A stretch of DNA of 64,000 nucleotides from Terriglobia bacterium (GTDB lineage Bacteria > Acidobacteriota > Terriglobia > Acidiferrales > UBA7541): positions 2,912,001-2,976,000 of the forward strand of contig OY968796.1 in NCBI GenBank assembly GCA_963695545.1, written 5' to 3'. The translations under genes and the position numbers were made by a program. The notes below the pieces were generated by a model. That model was not told the origin of the DNA, did not search any database, and saw only the letters and a list, made by a program, of their open reading frames with translations. This document shows, in pieces, positions 35,660 to 38,169 of this stretch (position 1 is the first letter of the stretch; each line of letters begins with the position of its first letter).

Positions 35660-35925
35660 GTTTCGAATACTCAAAAAGTAATTGACACTCGCTCACACTT
35701 GCGCTATACTTTTTCGTGTTCGCTCCTACCAATTCGAATAACTCACCGCGACGACTTTCGGCCAGGGCCGGGCTTACCTCCGCGCGCCCTGTGCAGCCGT
35801 GTTCCGTTCCTAATATTCTTGCAACCCCTGTATTTTCAGTCGATTCCGCACTGCTCGTGCACACATTTCCTGCAAGTCCTTTGCTCACATCATTTTACAA
35901 ACCGCGTACCGGGGATGTACCCCCC
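35660..35925 (+). repeat. Dispersed promoter-bearing element, copy C2
   Basis: TTCGAATA box; TTGACA(35682)-N17-TATACT(35705); GTG 35716; ends GTACCGGGGATGTACCCCCC. Confidence 0.8.
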
Positions 35926-36045
35926 TGCGGCTTTCCGGCGCCAAGCGCGCGCGGCAAGTTGTCTCGTTGCAATATTGCTCCTCGCGCGGCGGGATATAAT
36001 ACGCGCTCGTTCGCGGCGCCCATTGGTGACAGGAGAAACGCAAGC

Positions 36046-38169
36046 GTGCTGACGAAATCCGAAGCCAGGAAAAAAATCGAAAAGCTGCGCGAATCTCTGC
36101 GCCGCGACGAATACCTCTATTACGTCCTCGACGATCCGAAAGCCTCCGACGCCGATTTCGACCGCCGCATGGCGGAGCTGAAAAAAATCGAAGCCGCCTA
36201 TCCCGATCTCGCCACGGACGATTCGCCCACCCAGCGCGTAGGCGGCGCGCCGCGCGAAGGCTTCCAAACGCGCACGCATGTCCCGCCGATGATCAGCCTC
36301 GACAATACTTATTCCTACGACGAACTCGCGGATTTCGATCGCCGCGTGCGTGAACTTGCCGGACGCGACAAGGTCGACTACGTCGCCGAGAACAAATTCG
36401 ATGGCCTCAGCATCTCGCTTCAATATGAAGACGGCGCTCTCGCGCGCGGCGTCACGCGCGGCGATGGCGTAACCGGCGAAGATGTCACTCCGAACGTGCG
36501 CACCATCCGCTCGATTCCGTTGCGCGTGGCCGAGAAAACGCTGAAGTCGCTGAAGCTCCCAAACGCCTTCGAGGTGCGCGGCGAAATCGTGATGCCGCGC
36601 AAGGCCTTCGAGGATCTAAATCGCCAGCAGGAGGAGCAGGGAGGCAAGCGCTTCGCCAGCCCGCGCAACGCCGCTGCCGGCGCCGTGCGCATGCTCGATC
36701 CAACCGTCACCGCTTCGCGCAAACTCGATTTCTACGCCTATTATTTTCTCGCCGCGGGCCGTCCCGCGTTCCGTTTGCATTCGCAATCGCTCGAAGCGCT
36801 CAAGAAAATGCAATTCCGCGTCTCTCCCGATTGGAAAGTGTGCCACTCATTCGAGGAACTAAAGCGTTTCTGCGACGCGTGGGACTCTAAACGCGAGAAT
36901 TTGCCCTACGAAATCGACGGCATCGTCGTCAAAGTCAACGACACAGCGCTGCAGCAGGAACTCGGCAACACCAGCAAAGCCCCGCGCTGGGCCGTGGCCT
37001 ATAAATATCCCGCGCGCCAGGAAACCACCGTCGTCAACGACGTCATTTTTCAGGTCGGTCGCACCGGAGCCATCACGCCGGTCGCCGTGCTTGAGCCCGT
37101 CATCATCGGCGGCGTCACCGTAAGCCGCTCGACATTACACAACATGGACGAAGTCGCCCGCCTCGGCGTCAGCATCGGTGACACCGTGCTCGTCGAGCGC
37201 GCCGGCGAAGTGATTCCGCACGTCGTCAAGGTCGTCGCCGAAGGAAAAAATCGCAAGCCCGTACGCGTCCCCGAAAAATGCCCCGAATGCGGCAGCCGCA
37301 TTCACAAGGACGCGGACGAAGTGGCCTATCGCTGCGTCAACGCCGCCTGTCCCGCGAAGCGCCGCGAGTCGCTGCTGCATTTCGCGGGCCGCCACGCCAT
37401 GAATATCGATGGCCTTGGAGAAAAAGTTGTGGACCAGCTCATCGAAAAAGATTTGGTCCACGACGTCGCCGATCTGTATCGCTTGAAACTCGATCCGGTC
37501 GCAGCGCTCGAGCGCATGGCCGAAAAATCCGCGCAGAATCTGCTGGATGAAATCGAAGCCAGCAAGAAAAATAGCCTCGCGCGCCTGGTCTATGCGCTCG
37601 GAATCCGTTTCGTCGGCGAGCGCACCGCGCAATTGCTCGCCACGCATTTCGGCTCACTCGAAGCCATCGCGGCCGCCAGCGAAGATCAACTCACCGAAGT
37701 CGCCGAAGTCGGACCGAAAGTCGCCGCCAGCATCGCCGAATTCTTTTCCGAAAAGGTCAATCGCGATCTGATCAAGCGCCTGCGCGAAGCCGGCCTGAAA
37801 CCAAAAGAAGAGAAGCTCGCCGTCAAGGACAAGCGCCTCGATGGCAAAACCTTCGTCTTCACCGGCAGCCTCGAGCGCCGCTCGCGCGAAGAAGCCGGCG
37901 CCGAAGTCGCCGAGCACGCCGGCAAAGTAACCAGCACAGTCACGAAGAAAACCGACTACGTCGTGGTCGGCGCCGAGCCCGGTTCGAAATTCGATCGCGC
38001 CAAAGAACTCGGCGTAAGAATTCTCAACGAATCCGATTTCGATAAGCTCCTGGAAGGGAAGTTGCCCGTCGCCGCTGCGGCTTCATCTGAAAAAGGCGCC
38101 GCCCAGAGTAAGAAAAAGAAAGATGGGAAGCCTGGCGCAGTACGCGGCAAACAGAAGACTTTGTTTTAA
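36046..38169 (+). CDS. ligA: NAD-dependent DNA ligase
   Basis: KFDG adenylation motif, TRGDG..GED, PRNAAAG, zinc finger, BRCT; AGGAG RBS before GTG 36046. Confidence 0.97.

Follow-up and report, generated by a model that had tools for sequence, protein, structure and literature searches.

A dispersed repeat of a Terriglobia bacterium with a predicted leaderless start whose reading frame appears to be kept free of stops into neighbouring genes of either strand

Introduction

The 64,000-nt stretch of DNA analysed here (hereafter the window; positions 2,912,001 to 2,976,000 of contig OY968796.1, forward strand) belongs to a Terriglobia bacterium of the phylum Acidobacteriota and contains four copies, C1 to C4, of a repeated element with a predicted promoter and an ATG or GTG codon 5 nt behind its -10 box. 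A sequence-only reading of the window had noticed that this codon begins a stop-free frame in every copy, running in frame into the next gene or, for C4, to the window edge, and had proposed that selection may act on the openness of the frame rather than on the peptide, for example for inducible N-terminally extended isoforms or translation-coupled read-through. What, then, is such a frame kept open for? The question was followed through the genome of the window (G000, a 4.16-Mb single-contig assembly), its five congeners (G001–G005) and more distant relatives. The main signal shifts from fusing to the next gene to not stopping on either strand, and the strongest signal, absent from the first reading, is the frame choice and codon depletion at convergent genes.

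Results

A start frame kept open without a conserved peptide

A profile built on C1–C4 and run in two iterations against G000 yielded 113 matches, merged into 108, of which 103 carry a promoter pattern (TTGACA, a 17–18 nt spacer and an extended -10) together with an ATG/GTG start; five matches lacking the promoter or the ATG/GTG were excluded. The start lies exactly 5 nt past the -10 in 99 of the 103 copies, and it is not preceded by a ribosome binding site of the kind found in REP2 repeats. Start codons were picked by promoter position only, blind to reading frames. Of the 85 full copies, 80 have no stop in the start frame as far as the 3′ motif, compared with 37.3 ± 4.3 expected for a randomly drawn frame and 14.0 in dinucleotide shuffles, so that the open frame stands far above chance genome-wide, and the 8,392 codons of these copies contain 7, 127 and 174 stops in the start frame and the other two frames, respectively. 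Openness across 240 nt was also found in 17 of the remaining 18 copies with a partial profile. From the congeners, 99 of 116 matches were retrieved (none of the 15 of G002) and 98 scored, with 88 open copies in G001, G003, G004 and G005 and 15/208/238 stops by frame; in genus g14, where 40 loci were retrieved and 16 had a recognisable promoter, all 16 copies are open (0/15/17). The stop avoidance extends beyond the element, as the spacers hold 27/54/73 stops by frame ahead of co-directional genes and 1/17/14 ahead of convergent ones. Assembly indels are rare, at 1 frameshift per 97 kb aligned, in a test that overlooked the frameshift in the hydrolase gene (ure) next to C1.

No conserved peptide accompanies this openness. 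Thirty copies read the core in one frame, 43 in another and 2 in a third, stop-bearing one, while 10 have no core. The earlier claim that each subfamily reads the core in a frame of its own fails, the copies beginning with MFA comprising 14 with the KRVR reading, 9 with the KSA reading, 2 with the third frame and 7 without a core. Mismatches to the consensus are equally frequent at every codon position (odds ratio 1.05), and the GC content by codon position is flat in the element (0.52/0.52/0.53) versus 0.64/0.46/0.74 in genes. A search with the first 120 residues of C4 returned no homologue among proteins of 66–210 aa, the lengths searched. The family does not look like one of small-protein genes either, given no purifying selection on amino acids, two core frames and no common stop. 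The proposal that openness rather than the peptide is selected is thus upheld by the distribution of stops (7/127/174), the lack of a codon-position signal and the reading of the core in two frames, and these sequence features make it very probable that selection favours the open frame.

Mirror frames and codon depletion in convergent genes

A convergent gene is faced by 29 of the 103 G000 copies, and 27 of their frames reach that gene. The codon-aligned antisense frame (mirror frame) is the only antisense frame that stays open for long in GC-rich genes, and it was entered by 22 of the 29 copies (P = 3e-6). In the congeners, 18 of 36 copies did so (P = 0.03), or 14 of 22 among the frames that reach the gene. 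Antisense mirror frames in G000 are open over a median of 96 codons. The convergent genes are real, since Pfam matches were obtained in 19 of the 20 tested among the 29 (e.g. aconitase, EF-G and RNase E/G, and further fumarase, NAD kinase and a release factor), by which wrong-strand gene calls are excluded for these 19; Pfam matched none of the antisense frames, save where they enter a further gene. The whole opposite gene is spanned by 13 of the 29 convergent frames versus 5 of 58 control frames, and three of the 29 traverse the gene and fuse to the next gene on their own strand, as C3 does over rnpB.

As a stop in the mirror frame corresponds to a TTA, CTA or TCA codon in the host gene, stop avoidance can be tested on host codon counts. 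Based on 25 well-scoring convergent G000 genes (four low scorers left out), these codons were counted at 2.4 per 1,000 in genes convergent to a copy, compared with 6.4 in co-directional neighbours, 6.9 in all genes and 7.6 in other convergent genes, and the deficit is greatest within 400 codons of the element. Only 14 such codons were present versus 54.3 expected; a null matched for length and for GC at third codon positions gave a mean of 49.0, and none of 20,000 draws was as low as 14. The effect is specific: other NNA codons number 326 versus 366, and the same triplets off frame 208/241 and 204/241.

Among species, the depletion goes with the element. The 16 congener genes that face a copy have 8 such codons versus 20 in their element-free G000 orthologues (P = 0.018; control, 103 versus 105). 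These orthologues are themselves below background (3.2 per 1,000), and so prior suitability of the site contributes too. In the reverse direction, 28 element-free orthologues of eight open G000 genes contain 86 such codons in 12,336, which is the background rate, while two orthologues with a full copy have 0 in 744 codons and three with a partial core have 0, 0 and 5; one orthologue in this test is without downstream sequence. In tandem spacers, the antisense orientation is under-represented (15 versus 35, P = 0.007).

Hand-over to co-directional genes

How a frame meets its neighbour depends on the orientation of that gene. Toward co-directional genes, any hand-over predicted from the frames is sufficient, be it fusion, an ATGA overlap or a stop near the start. 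Among the 74 co-directional G000 frames, 11 fuse to the gene, 8 form an ATGA overlap, 8 overlap it by 5–60 nt, 7 run long out of frame and 13 stop at most 60 nt before its start. The median distance from the stop of the open reading frame (ORF) to the next same-strand start is 16 nt versus 128. Fusion in frame was found in 14 of all 103 G000 copies and in 7 of 58 co-directional congener copies. Over G000 and the congeners, 56 frames extend as far as a co-directional gene and 18 of these enter it in phase, exactly the share of one third, and phase 0 is held by 34 of 132 co-directional copies, slightly less than one third. In-frame fusion as a rule, which the window had suggested, is therefore not sustained (11 of 74 and 7 of 58), and the four fusions in four copies represent a local cluster: the window is part of a row of five copies that all fuse, and the region 2.90–3.20 Mb of G000 contains 7 of the 14 in-frame fusions, five of them consecutive (permutation P = 0.023 for a run of at least four and 0.002 for at least five, both post hoc).

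The fusions are not conserved between species. At ligA, G003 has another copy, whose frame ends 46 nt short of the gene, and G004 and G001 have none; at rnpB, the copy in G004 is of another subtype, and its frame crosses rnpB open and is out of phase with the nuclease gene beyond; aroA is unextended in five relatives. Taken with the share of one third among reaching frames and with neighbours that keep their own -10 boxes or Shine-Dalgarno (SD) signals, this speaks against the suggested N-terminally extended isoforms, whereas translation-coupled read-through, the other possibility named, fits the observations. Besides, where frames enter co-directional genes one base out of phase, 5 of 11 exceed 150 codons inside the gene versus a 10% background (P = 0.003); these five copies are at 902710, 1709312, 1730782, 2841179 and 4026704 of G000.

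Composition and distribution of the family

The unit appears to be a dispersed mobile repeat of ~250–450 nt whose sigma70 promoter is of the consensus type and whose start codon coincides with the predicted first base of the transcript. Copies are 70–87% alike and differ through indels of all phases, with the promoter boxes and TTCGAA kept in nearly all copies and the spacers variable. TTCGAA is present in G000 at 0.30 of its Markov expectation, with 206 of its 564 sites located within or next to the element, which makes up 1.7% of the genome; possible causes are avoidance of a restriction site, methylation or a dedicated regulator. [quoted passage not shown] A second core type is composed of tandem AGAATCAACACTT units (L030:1-215, L058 and L087; 15 G000 copies) between the same promoter and GGGG end, with a start frame likewise stop-free. 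The element is of ~52% GC, has a C/G ratio of 1.78 versus 1.00 in genes and a rut-like (Rho utilisation) strand, and shows no leading-strand bias (49 of 103 copies).

All five congeners have the promoter pattern (116 matches), and of 121 genomes in the order 24 have the core motif, chiefly those of genera g1, g14 and g159; since only 2 of 201 genomes of the phylum, G000 included, have the promoter pattern, the distribution is narrow. Rfam gave no match over C1–C4 nor, at E 0.1, inside the copies of eight loci, and the phage and plasmid collections gave none to the element. Neither the element nor the codon effect is described in the literature searched, which covered few subscription papers and no supplements. 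An Acido-Lenti-1 RNA motif is located at L013:40-85, ~170 nt 5′ of the start of one copy, in keeping with an acidobacterial genome. Spacers are rich in several REP-like families, and palindromes of the GTAG-type REP-like kind and a GCCTGCCGGCAGGC palindrome were seen beside or inside copies (window 35302-35310, 63555-63568 and 19012-19022).

Turnover of sites

Comparison of orthologous sites gave 10 empty and 35 filled pairs, so that the family (108 merged matches) resembles MITEs in being multicopy with empty orthologous sites, and a single spacer can be empty, refilled or occupied by an oppositely oriented copy across species. Sites of 19 of 40 G003 and 12 of 30 G004 copies are also filled in G000, although repeated flanks may mis-map some pairs. 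As most shared sites are occupied by another copy (median rank 30 of 103) in another phase, refilling of the same few permissive sites is suggested. No target-site duplication was visible by eye in seven empty-site pairs and the ure and rnpB sites, the genomes being ~80% alike and the insert flanks variable. Isolated left-end motifs at 757198-757439 (recG spacer) and 811426 (upstream of dnaB) of G000 look like remnants of copies, for G003 and G004 carry full recG-spacer copies in opposite orientations.

A mobilising enzyme was not identified in a search confined to Y1 transposases. Six Y1 matches were obtained in G000 (1198935, 1387492, 1424860, 1474552, 1475986 and 1479004; four loci, L137-L140), of which five lie within 2 kb of a copy versus 11% of random positions, and five of the six are flanked by other palindromes. 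One truncated match ends at the promoter of a copy, and a CTGTGGAAATTATTTCGAA-type left motif stands 5′ of the match at 1387492. In the window, an 89-nt repeat occurs three times in a gene-poor stretch (46861-46949, 48349-48437 and 50536-50624), by eye resembling the flanks of Y1 transposase genes.

The suggested inducibility was examined for LexA. A candidate G000 LexA box, TTCGC-N6-TTCGCCT, is located at 2228474, 2212278, 1924348, 1482289, 1910623 and 811307, and a matrix was made from these six sites, at lexA and recA and at genes that we take from their translations to be dinB-like, imuA-like, dinP and dnaB. The 103 elements scored a median of 4.6 and at best 11.8 bits, versus 16–26 bits of the true sites in leave-one-out scoring; LexA control of the elements was thus rejected, and inducibility through this box lost its support.

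The four copies of the window

All four frames are exactly where the sequence-only reading had placed them, with stops per frame of 0/4/3, 0/0/4, 0/5/6 and 0/4/4 in the leaders of C1 to C4, and all four neighbour genes retain their own -10 or SD signals. Pfam and NCBIfam confirmed the ligA, carbon-nitrogen hydrolase and beta-CASP nuclease genes and assigned no family to the extensions. C2, on the plus strand, has an upstream TTCGAA at 35662..35667, which does not match the G000 LexA box, a predicted sigma70-type promoter at 35682..35710 (-35 TTGACA 35682-35687, 17-nt spacer, -10 TATACT 35705-35710) and a predicted leaderless frame of 110 codons (35716..36045) from GTG 35716, whose element portion ends near the TACCGGGG motif (35907-35914). 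It opens into ligA, encoding NAD-dependent DNA ligase (36046..38169, plus strand), in frame in G000 and unfused in G003. The gene's own signals (35995..36036, plus strand) are a -10 TATAAT at 35995-36000, shared by G003 and G004, and an SD-like AGGAGA at 36031-36036, shared by G003.

On the minus strand, the promoter region of C1 (18934..18982; TTCGAA 18977-18982, -35 TTGACA 18957-18962, -10 TATCAT 18934-18939) precedes a predicted leaderless frame of 140 codons (18509..18928) that runs from ATG 18928, through the core inverted repeat (18708-18777, read KRVR) and the 3′ motif (18661-18668), into the carbon-nitrogen hydrolase gene starting at 18508, which is ureidopropionase-like (17948..18508, minus strand) and frameshifted past about codon 175. 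The element is absent from this site in G001, G003 and G004. Around window position 17980 (minus strand), the hydrolase gene has one base more than its G003 orthologue, either a real lesion or an assembly error.

C3, also on the minus strand, has two TTCGAA, a -35 TTGACA at 44215-44220 and a -10 TACCGT at 44191-44196 in its promoter region (44191..44266). Its frame of 379 codons (43049..44185) begins at ATG 44185, leaves the element at about 43828 (core read KSA) and joins the metallo-beta-lactamase/beta-CASP nuclease (MBL) gene (41651..43048, minus strand; own -10 TACAAT right before the ATG) in frame at 43048, as had been claimed, though it traverses rnpB first. The next gene for C3 is in fact this class A RNase P RNA gene on the opposite strand (43165..43711, plus), and so ~180 of the 379 codons read rnpB in antisense. 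On that antisense strand, a single frame is open throughout in G000; in G004, in which rnpB is faced by another copy, two such frames exist. For C4, on the plus strand, the promoter region (63386..63461) contains two TTCGAA, a -35 TTGACT at 63432-63437 and a -10 TATCAT at 63456-63461; the predicted leaderless frame from ATG 63467 (3′ motif 63794-63801) is open to position 64000 and continues past the window in frame into the next gene, whose start follows after 179 codons (609 aa in total), which answers the question whether C4 fuses too. From its motifs we take this gene to be aroA-like.

Discussion

Ribosome cover as the proposed object of selection

The feature common to all outcomes, as predicted from the frames, is a short ribosome-free gap. 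We lean, by a little, to the reading that ribosome cover of the element transcript is selected, as a host-level filter on where a mobile promoter persists. The consensus promoter would fire and the start would be translated without a leader; ribosomes would then cover the C-rich transcript and keep off Rho, R-loop formation or RNases, the peptide being a by-product; and insertions that leave the transcript bare would most likely be lost, the surviving sites being held stop-free thereafter. G000 encodes Rho, and its genes have no purine bias (0.50), which is consistent with coupling of transcription and translation. In E. coli, sections of one study describe Rho termination caused by premature stops (PMC13323073), and part of another suggests that antisense RNA is toxic only via R-loop formation (PMC5909445). 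That shielding by ribosomes is at work, whether through the filter or in the service of host regulation, is probable.

Several points weigh against the filter. The preference for the mirror frame is weaker in the congeners and missing in G001 (2 of 6); four convergent genes of genus g14 are undepleted (10 codons in 1,364); and the eight G000 genes of the orthologue test had been selected for their openness. Of the 74 co-directional copies, 27 leave a gap longer than 60 nt, with no terminator-like hairpin to compensate (6 of 50 copies with a gap versus 12 of 53 with a hand-over). With normal Rho, an early stop would give a shorter and less harmful antisense RNA, so that the filter needs bare RNA itself to be the cost. 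Transcription and translation of the copies are predicted from sequence, gene calls come from a hexamer model of our own, and the statistics ignore the kinship of copies and genomes, so that the P values overstate the significance.

Other explanations

A host regulatory network, in which regulated promoters drive the co-directional genes and silence the convergent ones by long, Rho-proof antisense RNA in an excludon-like manner, seems rather unlikely to us. It would account for the near-universal conservation of promoter boxes and TTCGAA beside variable spacers, for the 13 of 29 convergent frames that span the whole gene (5 of 58 controls), for the three that cross it and fuse onward like C3 over rnpB, and for the 19 of 40 G003 and 12 of 30 G004 copies at sites filled in G000. 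However, those shared sites usually hold a different copy and phase, the neighbour genes have mixed functions and keep their own promoters, the antisense orientation is depleted rather than enriched, and no LexA box is present (best 11.8 versus 16–26 bits). The shortage of antisense copies in tandem spacers, the copy turnover and the missing LexA box together favour the filter over a host regulon.

Alternatively, the element might depend for its spread on translation, either of a long RNA or of its template, with the result that only open copies arise or propagate. The fast turnover with empty, refilled and reversed copies, the five of six Y1 matches within 2 kb of a copy (11% at random) and the rut-like strand are compatible with this, but it is left unexplained why stops are still avoided after hundreds of codons in host genes, which do not move with the copy, a transcript beginning at the ATG excludes the promoter, and no mobilising enzyme was identified in the search of Y1 transposases only; we regard it as improbable. 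More doubtful still is a sequence-tolerant role of the polypeptide, with short released peptides toxic or long junk chains useful. Two core readings recur, N-termini are common within subfamilies and the composition is rich in S, P, A, L and R; opposed to it are the lack of synonymous bias and of homologues of the first 120 C4 residues among proteins of 66–210 aa, and the target is not length as such, since co-directional copies put up with 90–150 codons and convergent ones extend over hundreds.

Selection for N-terminally extended isoforms of the neighbouring genes is very improbable: the four window copies and the preceding one do fuse (run of at least five, P = 0.002, post hoc), yet only 11 of 74 and 7 of 58 copies do so overall, 18 of 56 reaching frames are in phase, phase 0 is held by 34 of 132, the extensions are not conserved at ligA, MBL and aroA, and that of C3 is mostly antisense rnpB. 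Chance or artefact, through open frames of GC-rich DNA, a single open founder, or assembly or gene-calling effects, is hardly credible although mirror frames are often open in G000 (median 96 codons) and the single-contig assembly has at least one frameshift, given elements of ~52% GC with other frames rich in stops, copies at most 87% alike with indels of all phases, starts set by promoter alone, recurrence of the result in fragmented assemblies of other species, and the codon depletion of the convergent genes.

Implications

Taking ribosome cover as the selected property one step further, the family may, as a tentative reading of the whole, be a mobile element whose sole conserved cargo is an instruction to begin translation and not to end it, which reshapes the synonymous codons of its host and launches ribosome-shielded transcription into anything downstream, including, in backward reading, whole essential genes and RNase P RNA. 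In its boldest form, this would make the family a portable switch with which the host turns neighbours up or down, and the copies a standing source of long translated antisense frames for new genes. If true, a second coding constraint is imposed on host genes. The family amounts to a natural experiment at ~100 sites in several species that lets selection on the openness of a frame be told apart from selection on a protein. Long antisense ORFs of GC-rich bacteria tend to be either discounted as shadows or put forward as new genes; in this family, an adjoining repeat appears to maintain them for translation alone. This makes testable the cellular cost of untranslated antisense RNA, the escape of mobile promoters from Rho via a leaderless start, and the rise of long overlapping frames before any function. 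For annotation, the copies are a warning, as they yield false N-terminal extensions of ligA, aroA and others.

Comparison with known systems

REP2 of Neisseria and IR-A of Borrelia are, in the sections of PMC3184786 devoted to them, dispersed repeats with a promoter and an initiation codon, lacking terminal inverted repeats, having internal ones and located upstream of genes. The promoter with an initiation codon is shared by 103 of our 108 matches; REP2 differs, according to the same sections (PMC3184786), in having a ribosome binding site and in supplying the start of the downstream gene. The present element instead has a predicted leaderless start and a frame of 80 to >1,000 codons; the genes beside it retain starts of their own, a convergent gene lies opposite 29 of the 103 copies, and the codon use of the host is affected. 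With Correia/CREE, promoter-bearing MITEs, ERIC, RUP and BOX, it shares, as far as the relevant sections of PMC10969869 and PMC3184786 go, the multicopy intergenic location, outward promoters, filled and empty sites and occasional ORF fusions; those sections report no selection for a peptide-independent open frame. Unlike MITEs, it has no terminal inverted repeat; no target duplication was visible by eye at empty sites, and its copies are 70–87% alike.

In the excludon or noncontiguous operon, as partly described in PMC7154746, a single long transcript runs antisense to one gene and then in sense through the following one. The corresponding geometry, known here from sequence alone, is present at C3 and 3 of 29 convergent copies, with the difference that the antisense stretch is an open frame begun in a mobile repeat and that the sites turn over between species. 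The proposed working principle would be that of Rho polarity and coupling in E. coli, where, in sections of the studies concerned, ribosomes shield nascent RNA from Rho (PMC13323073) and untranslated antisense RNA is terminated or forms R-loops (PMC5909445); this is a general mechanism and not a repeat family. In 10.1101/2020.02.20.958058, a term search for Rho, stop codon and R-loop gave no match. The antisense overlapping genes pop, ano and laoB, from partial accounts of them, are translated frames antisense to genes, but as single loci with a proposed protein function, versus ~100 copies with no stop of their own here. Leader-peptide attenuators, in turn, are upstream frames in which translation and not its product counts, and they are short with a defined stop.

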